Of a stretch of 64,000 nt of DNA, positions 30,931-40,496 are shown piece after piece. Each line of letters opens with the position of its first letter. Position 1 is the first letter of the stretch. Source of the DNA: Escherichia coli. GTDB lineage: Bacteria > Pseudomonadota > Gammaproteobacteria > Enterobacterales > Enterobacteriaceae. The DNA lies in the NCBI RefSeq assembly GCF_024298765.1, contig NZ_CP101211.1. One strand, given 5' to 3'. The notes under the pieces were generated by a model, which had not been told where the DNA came from, searched no databases, and saw nothing but the letters and a program-made list of their open reading frames with translations. The position numbers and the translations under genes are program-made.

Positions 30931-33900
30931 CTACCTTTTATTTTCATTAAGCCACTGATCCGCTTTATCGACACGTGACTGGTAAGGCTCATTTGTGTTG
31001 CTCAGCTCTGACTTCATGTACTGAATGAATTCATCTGCTTTCTGAGGCCCAAAGCGTGGGTCATCCGTCAATTGCTGCCGGATAGCCCTTTCAGAGTTCT
31101 GCGCTGCATTCGCATAAGTCGAAACGCCGTCGCTGCTAATACTCTGATACCGGTCACTTACAGCTGCGACGCCATCAGACATCTGCATGTGATTAAGGAC
31201 TTTACCCTGGAGAGAATCAGGCATATTTGCAGGGTTAGAGGCATCATTTGCTATCGATGTCTGGGTTTGAAGGATGCCCGCTCCCGTAAGCATCTCATTT
31301 ACCGGTTTCGCCCCAACGCTGGTTAGCGTATCCGAAACAAATTGCTGGCCCCCGAGTAGCGCACCAGAAATCGCGCCCCGCTCAGTGTTGGCCTCTATCT
31401 TTTCCCCAACCAAGCGATCTGTGACGGTCTGAGTGCGGTTACCAACGAGACCACCGCCCGACCCACCCTCTCCTAGGTTTGCCCGTACGACTGACTCAAG
31501 TGAACCATCAGCTCTGTTATGAGTGTTGAAACTGCTATGGATGCTCTGAACGTCATTCATACTCCAGTTAACGTTATAGTTACCCAGTTCATTAAGGATC
31601 TTCTGGGTATCCGCTTTGAGCTGCTCTCTTTCGGCACCGGTAGCCATGGTGCTGGCACCATAGGTAAAGACAGCTTGCTGTGCCAATTCAGCTCGCTTAT
31701 CGTCCCGGCTTAAGTTCGGGTTGTTGGCAACACGACTAAAGTAGTTATCAGTGTTATTAGATAAGCCACGAACTTGACCGCTCTGATACATACTGTTCAA
31801 AGCAGTGGCTCGTTGATCCATTCCATCACCAACCACCCGACCTCCGGTAGCCTTTTCCAGATCGTTAAATGTGCCTTCTGCATTTCTGACATCCTGACCT
31901 GAATTGACGACTTTCTCTACACCCTGATTATTCAGTACAGGGCCATTCGTTTTGAGAGAATTGAGCACATTCCTTTCTTCATCAGAATAAGTGCGGCCCA
32001 CGTTGTTGTTATGTATTCCCTGAATATCGCCTTTGCCCGCGTTATCAAGGTTATACGGAGTAAAGCCAGCTTCACTTTTTCCAGGGACACGCTGAGTCGC
32101 GTCCTGAGCGTTGGAGGAAAGACCGAGTTTAGCCTGCGAATCAACACTTCCACCCAGTTCCCCTACGCGTGACGCACTCATCACGCCAGACGTATTTACG
32201 CTGTCAGGAGTTCTATCCTGTGCCTGAGTGATAGTATTAATTCCTGACCCTTCGCCTGAAATTCTGTCGAGCTGATTGGTGATAGGTAGCAGCTGCTGTG
32301 CATTACCACCGAAGTCGGAAACCAGACTTTTAAGCAGGCTGGAGGTTTCACGGAGATCCTGTTTATTACTTTCGGCCGTCTCTCCCCGGGCGGTATCAAT
32401 CGCAATTTTTTGCTCACTGAAATCTCGTGTTGCAGCCACAAGCGCGTCAGTACGTTGAAGCTGCGAACCAAGCTGATTACTGGCCTTGAAGGTATCGTTA
32501 TAGGAGTTGAATTTCTCCATAAACGCATTCTCATCCAGCCCATTCTTACGAGCAAAATTCCTTACATCATCATCACTGAAGTTTTTGTTGCGAATAGAAT
32601 CGGAGAACCTGTCCAGGTTAATGCTTTGTTTAGAATCAAGGCTCATTCCACTATTGGAGCTGGCGTTAGTCGATACCGATGTAGAAATGTTTTGCGCCAT
32701 CGTCTGTGTCGCCTGGTTCATTTTCGACGATGCTTCTTTAAACGCATTAGTATTGGATATCTGATCGCTGCTTACCTGAGACGCCGCTTTACTGAACTGG
32801 TCAGTCAAAGCAGAATCCTGGCTAAGCTGATTCGTGATTGCTTTTGAAAGGTCATTTGAAAGCGAGTCACTGCCTGTATTGGTCTTAGATGCGCCGCTAC
32901 TCAATTGCCCTGCTACAGCTGCTTTCAGCCCGGCTCCGTTGCCAGTTCCAGCACCTCCATTAAGCCCAGCGTTTAGAATAACATTTGAAGCAATGCTGGC
33001 CATCTGAGACGCACTCACCCCATGTTTCGTTGCAATACCTTCTGCTACAGAGGCACCAATCTTATCCGAGATCTGCTTCATTGTTTGCAGGTTGGTTGAG
33101 AACTGCTGGCTCGACTGTCCTGACCTTCCAATTTCACTCATCTGACTGTAACCAGCCTGGAATGAATTACTTGCCGCACTCATAACTGATGAGGTTACAG
33201 CTGATCCTTGCCCCTGGCTGTTAGCGATACTTGAACCAGCATTCCACATTCCAAGACGGAAATTACTTGAATCAACTGCGCCGCCATCGCTGTATCCCTG
33301 ACCGGTACTGGTCAAGGCGGTTCGTGTCACGTCACCAAATGAAGATTTACCGCTGTTAGGGCCATCCCATACTTTGGGCGTTACATGACCAGTATCCACC
33401 GGCGCATCGGGGGTCACTCCCTTAACCGCATTCATCATCGGGTGAATCGACTGTGTCATCAGGAATAATGTGAGTACCGGAATCAGAGCATAAAGCGCGG
33501 AAGCAACAGACAGGTATGAACTGTATGTTTCCGCAAGCCCTGGGAGCCCCATCCACGTGACGGCATTATTCTGGCTGTTGAGGGTGCTCCAGGTATCCAG
33601 ATCGGCCGTCGCGACTTTCTTCACATACGCGTTGACCATTACTGCCGTAAGCGGCCACATATTCACGAAGAGAATAAGTTGCAAATATTTCGCCGCAGCG
33701 GCAACACCATTACCACCTAACGCCAGCAGCATAAGCAAAGCAAATGGAGCAACCATGTAAGCAAACATCTCAAGGAATGCGATTGCTGCTCCAGACAGTT
33801 GTAACCACAACTGGCCCTGTGAAGCCATTGTGTTGGTTCGCTTCAGAGAAGCCTCAAACAACTGCATATCGGAAGCCAGACCGAGTGGGGTCTTATATTT

Positions 33901-34884
33901 GCTTGCGCCATTTCTGAGCTCATTCATTATGAACAGGTTCAGGGTGGCGTCATACGAACCAATAGCCTTACCGTACATACCATTTGCTGACGCCATAACA
34001 TCAGTAAAACTTGCGCCGGTAGGTGCACCATTTGCTTCGTCTGGAGTAAGGATGCCGTTTGTCTGTCCTATAAGGGAAATAGTCTGGCGAGCTTCAGCTG
34101 TACTGGTAACCTGTTTCACAGTTGACCAGACCTCATCACACGTACCAGATTTTGAACCGTTAGCGCCAACAATACTGGCAGAGGCATTCTTCAGTGCGCC
34201 TTTCATCGCCTGATTAATCCGGTCCATGCTATCTGCCAGATTAGCTGAGAAAATATCGTTAAAAATAGTTTCTTTACCGGCAATATTTGCGCTTGAGTTT
34301 TGGGTAGCCTTCAGGCAGTTGTATGCAAGAGACTGAACGGTAGCACATACGTTCATTGGCCCTAGCCCGCTGGCCGGTTCAGGAAATGCAGAACAGTAGC
34401 CCTGGCTATCGCCGCCCCATTGCAAAAACTTCACGAATCGGATCATCGGACCGAGGGTGATGTCATCGTCCAGAGTTGTTGCAGACAGGTCCACCGGAGA
34501 AAGCGGATCAAACGCAGTTTTATAATCCTTCAGCAAACCCTGGCTTAAGTTAGTGGTGACGGTGGCCATCGCAGCAATAAAAATTGGAATTCCGTCGACG
34601 TTTCTGACCTCTCCCGACTTTACAGATTCAATAGTTACATCCACTCGAACCATTGCCATCATGAAAAGGATCAACCCCAAAAACCAGGAGAAAAACGGTA
34701 ATTCATTTTTGGTCGGAGCCTGAAGCCATAGCCACGTTTTATAGAATAGGCTCACACCTGCTACAACGGCGGCCGTGGTCAGGAACTCTTTTACACCAGT
34801 ATATTGAGAAAAGATTAGGGCAATACCGGTAAAAGCCGACCAGACAAAATCAATATCACCCAGGGTATATATGTTGTAATCCAT
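30931..34884 (-). CDS. trhG: F/H-type conjugative transfer protein TraG/TrhG (mating-pair stabilisation, large inner-membrane protein)
   Basis: 1317 aa, polytopic N-terminal half and Ser/Gly/Asn-rich periplasmic region; follows traH. Confidence 0.7.
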   Translation of the reverse strand: MDYNIYTLGDIDFVWSAFTGIALIFSQYTGVKEFLTTAAVVAGVSLFYKTWLWLQAPTKNELPFFSWFLGLILFMMAMVRVDVTIESVKSGEVRNVDGIPIFIAAMATVTTNLSQGLLKDYKTAFDPLSPVDLSATTLDDDITLGPMIRFVKFLQWGGDSQGYCSAFPEPASGLGPMNVCATVQSLAYNCLKATQNSSANIAGKETIFNDIFSANLADSMDRINQAMKGALKNASASIVGANGSKSGTCDEVWSTVKQVTSTAEARQTISLIGQTNGILTPDEANGAPTGASFTDVMASANGMYGKAIGSYDATLNLFIMNELRNGASKYKTPLGLASDMQLFEASLKRTNTMASQGQLWLQLSGAAIAFLEMFAYMVAPFALLMLLALGGNGVAAAAKYLQLILFVNMWPLTAVMVNAYVKKVATADLDTWSTLNSQNNAVTWMGLPGLAETYSSYLSVASALYALIPVLTLFLMTQSIHPMMNAVKGVTPDAPVDTGHVTPKVWDGPNSGKSSFGDVTRTALTSTGQGYSDGGAVDSSNFRLGMWNAGSSIANSQGQGSAVTSSVMSAASNSFQAGYSQMSEIGRSGQSSQQFSTNLQTMKQISDKIGASVAEGIATKHGVSASQMASIASNVILNAGLNGGAGTGNGAGLKAAVAGQLSSGASKTNTGSDSLSNDLSKAITNQLSQDSALTDQFSKAASQVSSDQISNTNAFKEASSKMNQATQTMAQNISTSVSTNASSNSGMSLDSKQSINLDRFSDSIRNKNFSDDDVRNFARKNGLDENAFMEKFNSYNDTFKASNQLGSQLQRTDALVAATRDFSEQKIAIDTARGETAESNKQDLRETSSLLKSLVSDFGGNAQQLLPITNQLDRISGEGSGINTITQAQDRTPDSVNTSGVMSASRVGELGGSVDSQAKLGLSSNAQDATQRVPGKSEAGFTPYNLDNAGKGDIQGIHNNNVGRTYSDEERNVLNSLKTNGPVLNNQGVEKVVNSGQDVRNAEGTFNDLEKATGGRVVGDGMDQRATALNSMYQSGQVRGLSNNTDNYFSRVANNPNLSRDDKRAELAQQAVFTYGASTMATGAEREQLKADTQKILNELGNYNVNWSMNDVQSIHSSFNTHNRADGSLESVVRANLGEGGSGGGLVGNRTQTVTDRLVGEKIEANTERGAISGALLGGQQFVSDTLTSVGAKPVNEMLTGAGILQTQTSIANDASNPANMPDSLQGKVLNHMQMSDGVAAVSDRYQSISSDGVSTYANAAQNSERAIRQQLTDDPRFGPQKADEFIQYMKSELSNTNEPYQSRVDKADQWLNENKR

Positions 34885-34892
34885 GTCAGACC

Positions 34893-36308
34893 TCAGTTAC
34901 GTGTGCCACGAATACTTTCAGTGAAAGCCTTCCGTTGCAGGCGACGGTTATCCCAGGTTGAAATGACGTCCGAGCTGGTACCGACCTGGCTGTGCGATAG
35001 CTCATAGGCGGCTTTAACCTGTTTTGAGAGATTGTCTGTTAATCGGTTGAGATCATCCCTTTTACCCGACAGCGACTCACTCGGTATGCTCATGGTTGAA
35101 ATTTTGGCCTCAACCTGGCGCAACATGTTGATTACGAGGCTCGTCGCAGCAATAGTGCTTATGTCCTGAATGTATGCGTACCCTTCCGGTGCTTCGAATG
35201 TTTGCAAAGAGTCGATAATGGTCGGGATGCCGATATAGGAGATAATGCGTAATTCATCATCTGAAACACGAACGTCGTTGATGATTTTTTTCTGTACGTT
35301 TAAAAGAAGATCAGAAATGGTATCCTTCAATCCCTTAAAACCACCGTCATTAACTTCTGACATGACAAGGCACTGAGCCTTTCGTGGGGATGATGGATCT
35401 GGTGCCGGAGAACACTTGAGCATTTTAATTGATCCGCCAGCTGGTGGCCCCATGATGTAATCCGTGACAGTCATGGTAGACGGGCGGACTTCCATTCCCG
35501 CTTTTTCGCCTTTGCTATCCCAGTTGATAATGACAGTACCCACGAGAGACATAAGTTGTTCTGCCAATTTATAACCGGATAACTCCGTTACCCCTCCGAT
35601 GTTCATTGTTCCCTTATCAATATCCATGAACGACATATAGAAGAGGTTACCACTGAATTTTTCAGCGAACTCTTCGGGATCCTTTGCTTTAACCTGAGAA
35701 GTGACAGCTTCAGGTGACTTTGTCATCGATGAGCCAAAATCAGGAATGAGACCATTAATCGATCCCAGAATTGAGGCTGGTCCAGAGCTAACTGAGTTAG
35801 CGAACTGGCTTGGCGTACCCACGTTTTCAGAAAGGAAAGAGTAAGTTGCATTGCATGAATCTTTCGCAAATTTATTTAGCGCTTGCAGTTTGTTTTGGAT
35901 GTCATTAATCGTTGCAGCACAGTCAGCACAAATAGCTGAAACAGCAACGTTAAAAGCATAGATAGCCGCACCCTGGGCAATACCACGGGCCACCTGCACA
36001 AGCTGGTCCCCGTTGATCATGCTGAAGGACCCAAGAAAAACGTCAATACCATTACAACCGACAGAAGCTTTTGGAAACGACATGGAAACAAGGTTGGTAT
36101 TAACGTTTGTTGTTCGGTAAGACATTGACCCGCCAACTATGCCTGTACGGGTTGCTGTGGAAAAGGTGGCCGGGCTGGTAGACGTCATCATGCCATTGAA
36201 AATGTTACGCATTGCGTTGTCTGCATTTGCAGTCGGGGCTAAAATTGCAGCACAAACAGAAAGAGACAAAAGTAACTTTTTGAAGTTGAAAACGGCATTA
36301 CTGCGCAT
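34893..36308 (-). CDS. trhH: F/H-type pilus assembly protein TraH/TrhH
   Basis: Signal peptide MRSNAVFNFKKLLLSLSVCAAILAPTANA (start taken at the Met at 36308); about 470 aa. Confidence 0.65.
   Translation of the reverse strand: MRSNAVFNFKKLLLSLSVCAAILAPTANADNAMRNIFNGMMTSTSPATFSTATRTGIVGGSMSYRTTNVNTNLVSMSFPKASVGCNGIDVFLGSFSMINGDQLVQVARGIAQGAAIYAFNVAVSAICADCAATINDIQNKLQALNKFAKDSCNATYSFLSENVGTPSQFANSVSSGPASILGSINGLIPDFGSSMTKSPEAVTSQVKAKDPEEFAEKFSGNLFYMSFMDIDKGTMNIGGVTELSGYKLAEQLMSLVGTVIINWDSKGEKAGMEVRPSTMTVTDYIMGPPAGGSIKMLKCSPAPDPSSPRKAQCLVMSEVNDGGFKGLKDTISDLLLNVQKKIINDVRVSDDELRIISYIGIPTIIDSLQTFEAPEGYAYIQDISTIAATSLVINMLRQVEAKISTMSIPSESLSGKRDDLNRLTDNLSKQVKAAYELSHSQVGTSSDVISTWDNRRLQRKAFTESIRGTRN
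36270..36282. repeat. Backbone palindrome copy AAAAGTAACTTTT, inside the trhH 5' coding region
   Basis: Exact copy encoding FNFKKL of the signal peptide. Confidence 0.75.
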
Positions 36309-37344
36309 AAGTGCCTCCAAAACTGCCGCCAGCATTGAGATAATTGACCGGATCGGCCGTAGGCATGTCATAGCCTTCGAGTTTTTGGTCCATTATTTTT
36401 TGAAGTAAGAATGGGTCTGATTCCATTTCGGATTTATTAACGGTAATAACGCCATCATCACCGATGGTATATTGCCTTTTAATATCTAGAGTTGACTGAA
36501 ACGAAGCGTCATCGATCAGATTCATGCCCTTCGCGGCAAGTATAATAGTGTTCTTTAATTCATCAGCGGAGATCATGCCTTCACTAATGCGCTGAGCTGA
36601 TGTCCCATCCTTTGAAACCAGGAAAATTGTAGGTACCTCTCGAATTTTAAATTGATCAATAATTTGTGCATTGGGGATGTTAAAATCCTGAAAAAGGCCA
36701 TTATGCAATGGCCTTCCATCCATACTGATTGGAAGAATATCTACCGAATAATAGTTCTGCATAAATTGAAGTATTTGGCTCTCTTCGTGGCAAAACTGGC
36801 AAGTACTCTGGAAAAAGAAAAATAAACCTGACTTAGTAAAGATATCTTTCATTACCGTTTGCTGATTTTTTTCAACAACAGTGCGGTGAGCATCCAGTGC
36901 CACCTTTTCCACTGGTTGCCTGCGTTTTTCAGACATCATCGGGTTTTTAAGAAAATAATCTTTTGATTTGTCAGAAAAACGCGTACTGATATCCAGCATT
37001 AACCTTTGCGCCGTGTAATAACGTGATAGATTTTCTGCGGTAGGGTTATCCATTGCCTGCGTTAACAGTCGAGGAATATTCTCTTTTAGCCATTTTGAAT
37101 TTAAATCTACCTTTTCCTCTTTTGAAGGCGAGCTAGCAGCACCGGTTGGTGGCAAAACCTTTTCTTCTTCAGCTTCGCTTTTTTTAGCAGGATCGTCATA
37201 CCAGAAGAAACCCTTCTTATAAGCCTGGCCTGATACAAAGGGCGTATCTTTTATTAGGGGTTGCTCAGGGCTGGCGTGGGCACCAGTAATTACCAAAGAC
37301 ATAAGCAAAACCATCTTTGAAGGCGCTAATGCAATACGAGTCAT
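36298..37344 (-). CDS. trhF: F/H-type pilus assembly protein TraF/TrhF (thioredoxin-like, CQFC)
   Basis: Signal peptide and a thioredoxin-like C-terminal domain with CQFC; first gene of the traF-traH-traG operon. Confidence 0.6.
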   Translation of the reverse strand: MTRIALAPSKMVLLMSLVITGAHASPEQPLIKDTPFVSGQAYKKGFFWYDDPAKKSEAEEEKVLPPTGAASSPSKEEKVDLNSKWLKENIPRLLTQAMDNPTAENLSRYYTAQRLMLDISTRFSDKSKDYFLKNPMMSEKRRQPVEKVALDAHRTVVEKNQQTVMKDIFTKSGLFFFFQSTCQFCHEESQILQFMQNYYSVDILPISMDGRPLHNGLFQDFNIPNAQIIDQFKIREVPTIFLVSKDGTSAQRISEGMISADELKNTIILAAKGMNLIDDASFQSTLDIKRQYTIGDDGVITVNKSEMESDPFLLQKIMDQKLEGYDMPTADPVNYLNAGGSFGGTYAQ

Positions 37345-37937
37345 AGACCGTTCTCCTTTTCTGATGCGGTTATGATGGCATACAAAAAAAAGGTTAGAGC
37401 TCGTATAGCATGGTCGTTTTTATGTTGAAAAGGACGGAAAAGGAGTGCTGACTAAGAAGATAGTCTCGGTGATGGAAAGATCATCCATCTTGCACATTGT
37501 GAAAAATCCGGTGTAACAAAAACATGGTTTTATCGAATATCTAAAAGCAAATATTGCTTTGAAAACAGGTGTATTAAGAGCTGAAAAAAATCATCACCAG
37601 TAACGCTGTTTCTATATTTCAAAGAAGGAATAGCTAAGGATCAAAGAAGCGAACTTAGGCAAGAATATAAAATATATTAATTGAAAGCGATTAAGAAGTC
37701 GTCATGCATAGAAGGTTTTAGAGAACCTAAGTAGTTTTACGTTTTCAACAGAAAAAAAGGTGAACATTTTTTGGAACGAAGAAAGACTGTATAAAGAAAA
37801 ATCAAATTATATCTTTACTTGTCAAGAGTTAATATTTAAGTTGTAACTAATATTTGATTGTAAAGCAAACAACAGAATTTGACTTAAGTCAATATTTAGA
37901 TTCAGACAAGGCAAGTTTCGCGATATCTTTTTTAAAT

Positions 37938-38450
37938 TTAATCTAATTCTTCTTGAGAATACCTCTCTATGGCTGAAGCAGTTGAAGATAATCTGCAACG
38001 TGGACAATAAGCATCATTTGTCACTGGCACAATGTATGGGCGTTTACATTTTTCGCAGGCACCTAGTTCTTCAATTTCTTTCATAGAAGTAAGGATTTCT
38101 ATTATTTTATTAACTTCCGGTGCGCATACAAAGTATCCCAGATTATGAAGGACACTCATTATTCGGTTGAAGTCAATTTGCCGAAAACTCGCTTCCGGAT
38201 TTATTGGATCAAAACCAAAATAGTTAACTGCGACATCAATAACAGCAGAAAAAGCTCGGCGGTTATCTGTGCGTTTGCTCCAGCCCCGGATACCTTTTTT
38301 GAGTTTTGTTTTTGCACCAGGCTCAAAATCGATATTTTCAGCAACATGATTACCGTACAAAATTCGTATTGTATTTTTATTTGCCCCAAGCGACATAGTC
38401 CTTGCTGCTCGCAATAGAGCATTAGCTTTTGTTTGATCGACCTTTGCCAT
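37938..38450 (-). CDS. FlhC-like regulator with a C-terminal C-x2-C-x15-C-x2-C zinc ribbon
   Basis: CEKCKRPYIVPVTNDAYCPRC has the Cys spacing of FlhC-family activators. Confidence 0.5.
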   Translation of the reverse strand: MAKVDQTKANALLRAARTMSLGANKNTIRILYGNHVAENIDFEPGAKTKLKKGIRGWSKRTDNRRAFSAVIDVAVNYFGFDPINPEASFRQIDFNRIMSVLHNLGYFVCAPEVNKIIEILTSMKEIEELGACEKCKRPYIVPVTNDAYCPRCRLSSTASAIERYSQEELD

Positions 38451-38451
38451 A

Positions 38452-39252
38452 TTAATAATCCTTTAACATAACTTTATTTGTTAAAGTGTTGAACACATCC
38501 TGACGGTGACTGGTGAACATAGTGTCATAACGTAATAGTTCCATCAAATCATCACTAACTTTTCCTAACCGGATGTCAGCAGACAATTCATAAGCCCAGG
38601 CAAAAACTTTCGTTTTAAGTGAAACACTCTCTTCAATATGCCCTTGTGAGAAAGCAATTGTACGTGGGAAAAGAACGACATCGTTAATTGTTTTTAACGA
38701 TGAATAACCAATGTCTTTAATAGCATCAGCTGTAGTTGGTTTTAAACCAAAGAAAACACTTACAAACTCTGGTGCGAGCATTGAGATAAAGAACACCTGC
38801 ATAAAGTAGTCATTCTGTATATCAACACATTTAGAACGCAACTCATGAATCTTCTTGGGATTATAGATATCCACTGTACCATTCAGAAAAGTCACTTTTT
38901 CACCGGCATCGTAAATACCATAGTCAATATCATTTGTATCATATTCACGAATTACATTGGAATCACCGTCCAAGACCGCAGAAAAAAACCTCTCCCATGT
39001 AATTTCCTTTCCGAGTGTACGCGGAACCAAAAAACTACCTGGACGTGTTTCCACTTCAAAAGCTAAATCAGCGGCTGTACTAAATCCTTTCCCAAATAGG
39101 CGACGCTGGAGAAGAGGAGTCCCAGTTTGATATGCAGAAGATCCATGCACAGGCAATAACATTAAAAATGCACGGTAACTACGAATAAGCGAAATCTCAG
39201 TGCGGAAAAGTTTACCGAGTAAGCTACGAGTTAAATTATCAGATTCTGACAT
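38452..39252 (-). CDS. Hypothetical protein co-transcribed with the FlhC-like gene
   Basis: 266-aa ORF ending 1 bp before the FlhC-like start. Confidence 0.45.
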   Translation of the reverse strand: MSESDNLTRSLLGKLFRTEISLIRSYRAFLMLLPVHGSSAYQTGTPLLQRRLFGKGFSTAADLAFEVETRPGSFLVPRTLGKEITWERFFSAVLDGDSNVIREYDTNDIDYGIYDAGEKVTFLNGTVDIYNPKKIHELRSKCVDIQNDYFMQVFFISMLAPEFVSVFFGLKPTTADAIKDIGYSSLKTINDVVLFPRTIAFSQGHIEESVSLKTKVFAWAYELSADIRLGKVSDDLMELLRYDTMFTSHRQDVFNTLTNKVMLKDY

Positions 39253-39329
39253 GTGCTGATTGTCCTTGCGCCATTACAATTGTTCAAATCTTCAACATGG
39301 ATTTTTTGTTAGGTGTTCGGTAGGGTGAA

Positions 39330-39342
39330 AAGTAACTTTTAG
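39330..39342. repeat. Backbone palindrome copy AAAAGTAACTTTT
   Basis: Exact copy about 80 bp upstream of the 266-aa gene start. Confidence 0.8.
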
Positions 39343-39349
39343 TATTTTC

Positions 39350-39372
39350 TTAAGGCTTGAATAAGCCTTAAA
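39350..39372 (+). repeat. Inverted repeat TTAAGGCTT-gaata-AGCCTTAA
   Basis: Perfect 9-bp arms, 8 bp downstream of a 13-bp palindrome copy. Confidence 0.5.
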
Positions 39373-39578
39373 TCTATCCCTTCAACCACACCGCTTACTT
39401 GTAACACTTTTTAACCAAACTGACCAGAATTTTATCAAAATTTCTTCGCATGCTAACGAAATGTGAAGCGATTAAAAAAAAACCTAAATCCAGCCCCTCC
39501 CAACGTTGGATTAGAATAACGACGTCTTTCACTGACCGTCATAAACTGACATTTTTACTTTTCATCAACCTCATGCTT

Positions 39579-39744
39579 ACATAGGATCACTAAACAAAGA
39601 AAAGTGACCCTATGAATACCTCACATAGGGTCACTTATGTTTGAAAAGTGACCCTATGTAATGTCGTCATAGGGTCACTTTTTATAAAAGTGTCACTATG
39701 GACAAAGTTCCATAGGGTCATTTTTTTTGGAAAAGTGGCACTAG
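39579..39744 (+). repeat. Array of about 8 copies of CATAGGGTCACT / AGTGACCCTATG in inverted pairs (candidate oriT or operator)
   Basis: Pairs at 39603-39635 and 39647-39679 (9-bp spacers), degenerate pair at 39689-39722, extra half-sites at 39579-39590 and about 39733-39744. Confidence 0.7.
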
Positions 39745-39813
39745 ATATATGTATAACTTTAATAGAGCAATGCACATTATCAAAAGCAATAATCCACAAT
39801 GGTCATTCCCTCA

Positions 39814-39825
39814 AAAGTAACTTTA
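39814..39825. repeat. Backbone palindrome copy (12 of 13)
   Basis: AAAAGTAACTTT about 190 bp upstream of the relaxase operon. Confidence 0.7.
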
Positions 39826-40010
39826 GAGGGTAGCGATGGAAGTGAGGCTAAACTCGCTGTTACTGTTTCTGAAGGCCCCTCCCGAATGGGGGAAACAGCG
39901 AGTGCATTACATCTGTTCAATTCCCTCATCAAAGAGCATTCAAAAATCTTCTGTTCGTGAAAAAAAACGGAAATTTCCTCCGGTATAGTAATTTCACATC
40001 AGGAGGCGTC

Positions 40011-40496
40011 ATGAGTAATTCGAATCTTATAAGTTCTATAGAGCTAACACGTAAAAATTTACGTGCTCAGATTGAAGGTTTGCGTGTTGAGGCTGAAGAT
40101 CTCATTACAAAATACTGGATCAAGTGGAAGGAACGAAACCACCAAGAGATTAACCTTACCCGACATAGCAAAGTTCCAAAGAGGGAGTATCTGGGTTCTT
40201 ACGCACCAAAAGTTGAGCTAATTGGTAATGCCAGAAAAGTAACGATCACTTGGCATCAGTTCAGCCCTTATAAAACAAGAGCGCCTAGTCACATGTCAAA
40301 ACGGGTGCAACCAATGAAAAGTGGAAAATATTCTAAGAACTGTTTTGTAAACCATGCCAGCTGGGAATACGAAATGATTTCTGAAACGGAAGCATTGCTG
40401 GAGCCTTACAGAGAAATGCTTGAGCTCTATCATTCAGCATATATCGAACTTGGACGAAAAATCCGTCAATACTCAAAAACTAAGGTGGCACAATGA
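40011..40496 (+). CDS. Hypothetical protein, first gene of the relaxase operon (possible relaxosome accessory factor)
   Basis: AGGAGG ribosome-binding site before the ATG at 40011; the supplied ORF starts earlier at 39957. Confidence 0.45.
   Translation: MSNSNLISSIELTRKNLRAQIEGLRVEAEDLITKYWIKWKERNHQEINLTRHSKVPKREYLGSYAPKVELIGNARKVTITWHQFSPYKTRAPSHMSKRVQPMKSGKYSKNCFVNHASWEYEMISETEALLEPYREMLELYHSAYIELGRKIRQYSKTKVAQ

Follow-up and report, generated by a model that had tools for sequence, protein, structure and literature searches.

Transfer regulation in IncHI plasmids and related elements

The regulatory experiments that bear on this promoter region have all been carried out on the IncHI1 plasmid R27, and not on the IncHI2 sequence described here. 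In R27, the Tra1 region comprises the operons R (trhR and trhY), F (trhF, trhH and trhG) and H; the operons F, H, AC and Z require TrhR together with TrhY, HtdA counteracts, and the F promoter serves as the standard reporter of this TrhR/TrhY-HtdA circuit (PMC7366339). H-NS silences trhR at 37 °C, and the documented H-NS effect is that on the trhR promoter (PMC7366339, citing Gibert 2014). Overexpressed TrhR and TrhY turn the F promoter on at both temperatures, even at 37 °C (PMC7366339). H-NS and Hha take part in IncHI thermoregulation and repress R27 transfer at 37 °C (PMC7366339, PMC2686267), and the R27 authors regard their action on tra operons as “more general than previously reported” (PMC7366339). 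Here we describe the IncHI2 counterpart of this F promoter region, i.e. the spacer between trhY and trhF at positions 37345-37937 (minus strand) of a 64,000-nucleotide (nt) stretch of Escherichia coli plasmid DNA (contig NZ_CP101211.1), to which we refer as the window.

A comparison outside the IncHI group is offered by the IncC plasmids and the SXT/R391 elements, which share with IncHI a MOBH relaxase, an MPF_F pilus, a traF-traH-traG operon and a two-subunit activator. The class II activators of these elements, SetCD and AcaCD, resemble FlhDC; they act on promoters that lack a -35 element and whose -10 is poor, the promoter of the traFHG module included (PMC4542580). In IncC plasmids, the activator operon is in turn subject to repression by an H-NS-like protein, and IncHI is not among the FlhCD-like systems listed in that review (PMC4542580).

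The trhY-trhF spacer of an IncHI2 plasmid

The window is an R478-like IncHI2 plasmid, identical copies of which are typed IncHI2A, MOBH and MPF_F. Both the assignment to the H-type plasmids made in a preliminary description of this DNA and its mention of temperature-dependent transfer are thus borne out, as IncHI2 transfer is thermosensitive (PMC9598596, PMC11058233). An htdA homologue is present in R478. The spacer recurs at 95-100% identity in 960 plasmid records, all of them predicted to be conjugative, and the same typing was obtained for each of the six records examined; a distant-mode search retrieved no copy of the spacer in any other context, and a distant BLASTN search with the spacer gave no IncHI1 match. 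It comprises 593 base pairs (bp) without genes, from the stop codon of a gene for 170 amino acids (aa), trhY, to the ATG of the TraF-like gene trhF, and it truly lies upstream of the pilus operon, because the operon is encoded on the minus strand.

R27 has the same gene order, with traH reading away from oriT (the origin of transfer) on one side, and trhR, trhY, the spacer, trhF, trhH and trhG following on the other. The two groups further agree in the length of the spacer, its AT-richness, its bias of C over G in the sense strand, a core with the sequence TATGCCATCATA, and flanking proteins that are 78-85% identical (78, 85 and 84% amino-acid identity for TrhR, TrhY and TrhF, respectively). 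The position between trhY and trhF, oriT and traH upstream, and the homology of the promoter core with R27 are the features of an IncHI F-operon promoter region. The spacer parts the transcription units R (trhR-trhY) and F (trhF-trhH-trhG) of the IncHI2 Tra1 region, and it is the counterpart of a known and experimentally used promoter region, which restates known IncHI biology for a well-sampled orthologue. The preliminary description, which had dealt with the tract as a possible target of nucleoid-associated silencers, had overlooked this chief identity as the regulator/F-operon spacer with its activator-dependent promoter.

Our reading, to which we assign a probability of about 0.6, is that the spacer consists of two parts, an activator-dependent F promoter on the trhF side and a composition-constrained terminator and H-NS tract on the trhY side. 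The elements concerned are the following:

37345..37937, minus strand: whole trhY-trhF spacer; non-coding; IncHI2 counterpart of the R27 region holding the F-operon promoter
37345..37494, minus strand: proximal part; 41% GC; Shine-Dalgarno sequence GGAG at 37353-37356; presumed TrhR/TrhY-dependent core promoter
37371..37391, minus strand: conserved core, -47..-27 from the ATG; eight T, one base, TATGCCATCATA
37495..37937, minus strand: distal tract; 28.9% GC, C over G; candidate platform for H-NS and/or Rho-dependent terminator of the trhR-trhY transcript

A conserved promoter core and a distal tract that diverges in sequence

DNA identity between IncHI1 (R27) and IncHI2 amounts to 73-78% for the flanking genes and to 74% for the oriT spacer, in contrast to the trhY-trhF spacer, which reaches 61.7% identity vs 59.9 +/- 0.8% for shuffled sequences and therefore is not alignable overall. 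The sole block that can be aligned, of about 50 bp, extends from -72 to -22 relative to the ATG (74% identity); elsewhere, the similarity does not exceed that of shuffled sequence. Within the block, the 12-mer TATGCCATCATA is identical and has the same distance to the ATG in both groups, preceded by a run of 7-8 T, and the sequence CGAGCTC is common to R27 and IncHI2 at about -59..-53. IncHI3-type plasmids have TTTTTTTTTATGGGATGATA at the position that aligns with TATGCCATCATA, and the 12-mer itself occurs only once in the window.

The same partition is seen at the much shorter distance between two IncHI2 lineages, represented by the window and the Enterobacter plasmid pC15_001. The spacers differ at 13 positions (2.2%), the neighbouring genes at 0.25-0.86% and the oriT spacer at 1.06% of positions; all 13 spacer differences are confined to the distal tract (2.9%), and the 150 bp next to the ATG have none. 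The distal tract is thus the fastest-evolving stretch of this neighbourhood, and the spacer can be described as a constrained promoter-proximal part joined to a distal part whose rate of change is close to neutral. What the distal tract has retained between IncHI1 and IncHI2 is composition and not sequence, as the R27 spacer with 611 bp, 35% GC and a C/G ratio of 1.48 closely resembles the IncHI2 spacer with 593 bp, 32% GC and a C/G ratio of 1.53. In IncHI3-type plasmids, the spacer before traF has 365 bp, 40-44% GC and a C/G ratio of 1.18.

Some further differences among these plasmids concern the spacer. In the IncHI2 plasmid NZ_CP039440.1 of Salmonella Kentucky, the insertion sequence (IS) IS1 lies in the distal tract at 37817-37826, on the upstream side of trhF and 473-482 bp away from it. 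The 10 bp of overlap, ACTTGTCAAG, appear to be a target-site duplication; the site overlaps TTGACA-8 nt-TATAAT, whose elements are too closely spaced for a promoter. IncHI3-type plasmids of Klebsiella and Raoultella carry an extra open reading frame (ORF) of 180 aa between trhY and traF (L003, 3051-3593; also L004 and L005), for which no family match was found, and between their trhR and trhY genes there is a 192-bp gap with the palindrome AAAAGTNACTTTT described below. A pseudogene remnant of the extra ORF was considered for the spacer, and tblastn against the IncHI1 and IncHI2 spacers gave no match.

The base composition sets the spacer apart from its surroundings. For what follows, the backbone is defined as the part of the window from 22 to 64 kb. 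The preliminary description had pointed to about 600 AT-rich bp ahead of the pilus operon, and this holds precisely, as the exact ORF-free spacer has 32.0% GC vs 48.2% in the window and 45.3% in the backbone. Only 0.4% of all 593-bp windows are equally AT-rich, the one with the lowest GC content (30.4%, 37521-38113) overlaps the spacer, and the spacer ranks as the most AT-rich of the 15 ORF-free backbone gaps of at least 150 bp, which range from 34 to 52% GC. The A and T runs that had also been described are present, nine of at least 5 nt in the spacer vs 3.1 per 593 bp of backbone, which is three times the density; their number is what the composition predicts (7.2 +/- 1.9 in dinucleotide shuffles). 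The AT-richness is uneven, with 41% GC in the 150 bp on the trhF side and 28.9% GC in the remaining 443 bp. With respect to strand bias, the sense-strand C/G ratio of 1.53 places the whole spacer in the top 0.08% of 593-nt windows of either strand, and C exceeds G in 94% of the 78-nt windows of the spacer, with a peak of 25 C and 7 G.

The promoter part

Neither a sigma-70 consensus scan nor our own weight matrix revealed a convincing or positionally conserved site in the spacers of IncHI2 and R27. On both strands of the IncHI2 spacer, neither a sigma-70-like promoter nor an intrinsic terminator was detected, and the R27 spacer likewise has no intrinsic terminator. A sigma-70 consensus is not expected in a promoter that, like the one of the R27 F operon, depends on TrhR/TrhY, and the scan gives the combination of a poor -10 and no -35 element that characterizes class II promoters of the FlhDC/SetCD/AcaCD type. 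For R27, the dependence on the activators is established by experiment; that it also applies here is suggested by synteny and by conservation of the core. The proximal ~100-150 bp would thus hold an F promoter without usable -35 and -10 elements that fires only in the presence of both TrhR and TrhY, and that is opposed by HtdA. In the upstream regions of F, H, AC and Z of R27 and R478, no shared word was found beyond low-complexity A/T.

Searches for other functional elements inside the spacer were negative throughout. There is no ORF of more than 30 aa that lies wholly inside it, an Rfam scan of 36800-40200 gave no match in the spacer and only weak hairpin-like matches in the oriT spacer, and no repeat array was found, just short matches at chance level. 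The sense RNA appears unstructured, with a folding z-score of -1.3 relative to shuffles (-0.26 for the R27 spacer). A literature search for a gene “trhX” in this spacer found none. A 21-nt inverted repeat (37437-37457 vs 37341-37361, 76% complementary) would permit a CT-rich stretch to pair with the Shine-Dalgarno region of trhF. This CT-rich partner is located ~95-112 nt upstream, and the pairing is relevant only if the mRNA starts further upstream than expected from the conserved core.

Termination and temperature control between trhY and trhF

Rho classically loads onto RNA that directly follows a stop codon, is neither translated nor structured, and is rich in C and poor in G. The spacer RNA has these properties of a Rho utilization (rut) region: it lies downstream of the trhY stop codon, its C/G ratio is 1.53 over 593 nt, it has no inside ORF of more than 30 aa, and the z-score of its minimum free energy is -1.3. 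Expression data exist for the R27 homologues (microarray units; PMC7366339 Table S4):

Wild type, 25 °C: trhR 1669, trhY 397, trhF 129
Wild type, 37 °C: trhR 510, trhY 200, trhF 20
htdA mutant, 25 °C: trhR 2521, trhY 788, trhF 3523
htdA mutant, 37 °C: trhR 1537, trhY 770, trhF 28 (not expressed)

In the htdA mutant at 37 °C, trhY transcription does not run into trhF (770 to 28, i.e. at most 4%), and this occurs without a predicted intrinsic terminator; the drop in signal from trhY to trhF fits the rut-like composition. Mechanistically, the distal ~440 bp after the trhY stop codon may therefore be envisaged to end the R transcript by Rho-dependent termination, probably aided by H-NS/Hha filaments, and this termination would keep the pilus genes strictly activator-dependent. 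H-NS bound to this tract would, in addition, silence the F promoter directly at 37 °C, an effect that an excess of TrhR and TrhY could override.

The same values bear on temperature control. In the htdA mutant, trhF is thermoregulated more than 100-fold at constant trhR and trhY mRNA and without HtdA, and something else therefore must block the F operon at 37 °C, where traH and most tra genes are also at background (PMC7366339 Table S4). Temperature control thus also acts downstream of trhR/trhY transcription. This extra block could be a direct silencing at or near the F promoter, or it could be a loss of TrhR/TrhY activity, as would be the case with thermolabile activators. It is the best available support for an involvement of H-NS at this site, without singling out H-NS.

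AT-rich DNA is the composition preferred by H-NS, and AT content is a good general predictor of H-NS occupancy. The preference for AT-rich DNA is also stated in PMC2686267. The distal 443 bp with 28.9% GC vs 45% in the backbone have such a composition, and binding of H-NS to the spacer is likely, as predicted from AT content alone. The IncHI locus shares with the general class of H-NS-silenced and activator-counter-silenced promoters on AT-rich DNA of horizontal origin, and of co-operative termination by H-NS and Rho, the upstream tract of 29% GC, the repression at 37 °C and the override by excess dedicated activator. Unlike that class, it shows no enrichment of the high-affinity motif or of curvature: the proU-type motif TCGWTWAATT has 3 matches in the spacer with up to 2 mismatches vs 5.6 +/- 2.3 expected and none with up to 1 mismatch, and the predicted curvature per 30 bp averages 10.7 degrees vs a local mean of 10.3, its maximum being 20 vs a 99th percentile of 25 (wedge model with the parameters of Bolshoy et al. 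1991, indicative only). No hns or hha gene lies within the window; a paralogue of H-NS is a general feature of IncH plasmids (PMC7544231). The H-NS interpretation of the preliminary description is thus partly supported, by 29-32% GC over about 450-600 bp and not by motif or curvature, and it does not concern the main documented route of thermoregulation.

TrhY as a possible FlhC-like activator

TrhR and TrhY have no sequence match in Pfam, NCBIfam or the PDB, and relatives of the 266-aa protein are labelled “trhR” by NCBI sources. The TrhY family is tiny, with 23 relatives among 1.84 billion representative proteins. The C-terminal CxxC-x14-CxxC of TrhY recalls the zinc site of FlhC, and in a Foldseek search with an AlphaFold model of TrhY (11 sequences; predicted local distance difference test score, pLDDT, of 69, i.e. 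moderate confidence) against 350,542 chains, the top three matches were FlhC chains, all of them weak (E 0.6-1.3, TM-scores 0.34-0.46). A profile comparison of TrhY and FlhC aligned the cysteine pairs, and its score was not significant. On the basis of this model, we lean towards a relationship of TrhY with FlhC. If so, TrhY probably has the role that FlhC plays in FlhDC, or AcaC/SetC in AcaCD/SetCD, as part of a class II activator that would bind around -35 to -95. The model of TrhR (pLDDT 50) was unusable.

The likeness to the AcaCD/SetCD systems would also extend to the promoter with poor -10 and no -35 element and to the FlhC-like model of TrhY. Unlike in these systems, sequence comparison detects no similarity of TrhY to FlhC, AcaC or SetC, TrhR has 266 aa, is reportedly membrane-associated and not recognisably FlhD-like, and no operator motif was found in common to the IncHI F, H, AC and Z promoters. 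FlhD has ~116 aa and is far shorter than TrhR. Flagellar synthesis is lowered by TrhR/TrhY (PMC8954029), an effect that one could understand if the protein is FlhC-like, and a literature search found no paper linking TrhY to FlhC, SetCD or AcaCD.

What alternatives exist for a two-part spacer?

Several observations weigh against the proposed combination of activator-dependent promoter and terminator/H-NS tract. As no motif is common to the four TrhR/TrhY-dependent promoter regions, the activation could be indirect; composition is what suggests a Rho or H-NS role of the distal tract, and an AT-rich spacer with C over G could equally be the product of neutral drift. High-affinity H-NS motif and curvature are unenriched, and since the IncHI3-type spacer is shorter and of ordinary GC content, an AT-rich tract is not universal in the family. 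For the activator, the model of moderate confidence, the Foldseek E-values and the non-significant profile comparison described above limit the FlhC likeness, and TrhR has been reported as a membrane protein with no visible likeness to FlhD. One alternative is that the distal ~440 bp are neutral filler, e.g. decayed remains that drifted to high AT, and that only the proximal promoter matters. Such filler would account for the 2.9% divergence next to genes with 0.25-0.86%, for the impossibility of aligning IncHI1 with IncHI2, for the tolerated IS1 insertion, for the absence of any motif, repeat, RNA family or structure in the tract, and for the different arrangement in IncHI3-type plasmids with their extra ORF and shorter spacer of ordinary GC. 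It does not explain why length (593/611 bp), GC content (32/35%) and C/G ratio (1.53/1.48) are all kept in sequences that cannot be aligned, a strand bias in the top 0.08% of windows is unexpected from drift alone, R27 transcription stops between trhY and trhF without an intrinsic terminator, and the extra IncHI3 ORF has left no detectable remnant. We therefore regard neutral filler as a serious alternative that is nevertheless clearly less probable than a two-part spacer. That the spacer instead codes for a small protein missed by annotation, or for a regulatory RNA such as a long trhF 5' leader or an antisense transcript, appears very improbable. This reading could draw on several ORFs of 21-30 codons, on the imperfect complement of the trhF Shine-Dalgarno region, and on the gene numbering of the R27 table, which jumps from R0124 to R0126, so that an R0125 may once have been called in the spacer. 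A conserved small ORF is impossible, though, in spacers that cannot be aligned between IncHI1 and IncHI2, the current NCBI annotation leaves this interval empty in R27, in R478-like plasmids and in others, and a regulatory RNA is opposed by the lack of an Rfam match, by folding energies like those of shuffles in both groups and by the absence of a promoter-like site on either strand.

Taken at its strongest, the H-NS idea would make the AT-rich tract a direct thermosensing silencer for H-NS/Hha and the main cause of the temperature dependence of the pilus operon. The distal tract as the most AT-rich DNA of the window, the repression of R27 transfer by H-NS/Hha at 37 °C (PMC2686267), the more than 100-fold loss of trhF expression at 37 °C at unchanged trhR/trhY mRNA without HtdA, the statement of the R27 authors on a more general action of H-NS/Hha, and the length and AT-richness that IncHI1 and IncHI2 have kept despite their lost sequence likeness are all in line with such a role. 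Against it stands that the documented H-NS target in R27 is trhR, and that overexpression of TrhR/TrhY abolishes the temperature effect on the F promoter; silencing of this promoter, if present, therefore is not dominant. Moreover, the motif is not enriched and the predicted curvature ordinary, IncHI3-type plasmids do without an AT-rich tract, and the block at 37 °C may equally reside in the activity or stability of the TrhR/TrhY proteins. A tract that is the main thermosensor is, like neutral filler, clearly less probable, and the two-part spacer, in which H-NS may add to termination and to an additional silencing layer, remains the reading that we prefer. A far-reaching extension, which we regard as still more doubtful, would be that the IncHI transfer regulon is run by an extremely divergent FlhC-like TrhY together with TrhR, as a sister to SetCD/AcaCD, and that the 440-bp tract is selected solely for its composition, serving as Rho/H-NS terminator and 37 °C lock that TrhR/TrhY counter-silence at low temperature.

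Genomic setting and dispersed repeats

The genes on both sides of the spacer are the following:

36298-37344, minus strand: trhF; 348 aa, TraF-like (TIGR02740, E 5e-98; Pfam TraF)
34893-36308 as annotated, minus strand: trhH; from the annotation of an identical plasmid
30931-34884, minus strand: trhG; TraG N-terminal domain; from the annotation of an identical plasmid
30931..37344, minus strand: F operon trhF-trhH-trhG, the genes served by the spacer
37938..38450, minus strand: trhY, activator subunit; 170 aa, C-terminal CxxC-x14-CxxC, FlhC-like predicted fold
38452..39252, minus strand: trhR, second activator subunit; 266 aa

Upstream of trhR there is a further spacer of 704-758 bp, followed on the plus strand by mobI/traH, a gene for 245 aa, the MobH relaxase and the coupling protein. 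This trhR to traH/mobI spacer (39253-40010) is presumably the oriT region, by analogy with R27. It contains repeats at 44-bp spacing (CATAGGGTCACTT / AAAAGTGACCCTATG) and, at 39577-39682, inverted repeats of 37-38 nt, which are the source of the microRNA-like hairpin matches in Rfam.

The palindrome AAAAGTNACTTTT is dispersed over the window, with 13 sites (13 nt, at most 1 mismatch) vs 0.35 expected by chance:

AAAAGTNACTTTT sites: 26362, 27263, 29356, 36268, 38887, 39328, 39813, 43236, 44674, 46404, 51306, 56355, 56481

It occurs in every IncHI1, HI2 and HI3 locus examined, with a position-conserved copy just inside trhH and copies also in the oriT spacer and upstream of trhA; within the trhY-trhF spacer there is none, although the palindrome is over-represented in the backbone. 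From its distribution, it looks like the operator of some backbone regulator. The first 22,000 nt of the window are accessory DNA of high GC content (52-69%) with five copies of a 240-aa ORF with TTG start (1464, 5919, 7622, 17536, 20606), which suggests an IS-bounded resistance region.

Implications for the spread of IncHI2 plasmids

The value of the finding itself is low, as it describes known IncHI biology on an orthologous and well-sampled sequence. What is useful is the distinction between a conserved promoter and a spacer maintained in composition only, as well as the little-discussed block of trhF at 37 °C at constant trhR/trhY mRNA. The by-products, i.e. the FlhC-like fold of TrhY, the composition-only spacer and the dispersed palindrome, may outweigh the finding, and the fold, if true, would connect the regulation of IncHI transfer with the SetCD/AcaCD paradigm. 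IncHI2 plasmids, whose transfer is most efficient below 30 °C, rank among the main vehicles of mcr-1, of extended-spectrum beta-lactamase genes and of heavy-metal resistance genes. The point at which temperature control enters the pilus operons thus bears on where these plasmids spread, in the environment rather than in the gut, and on which step of their transfer could be blocked.

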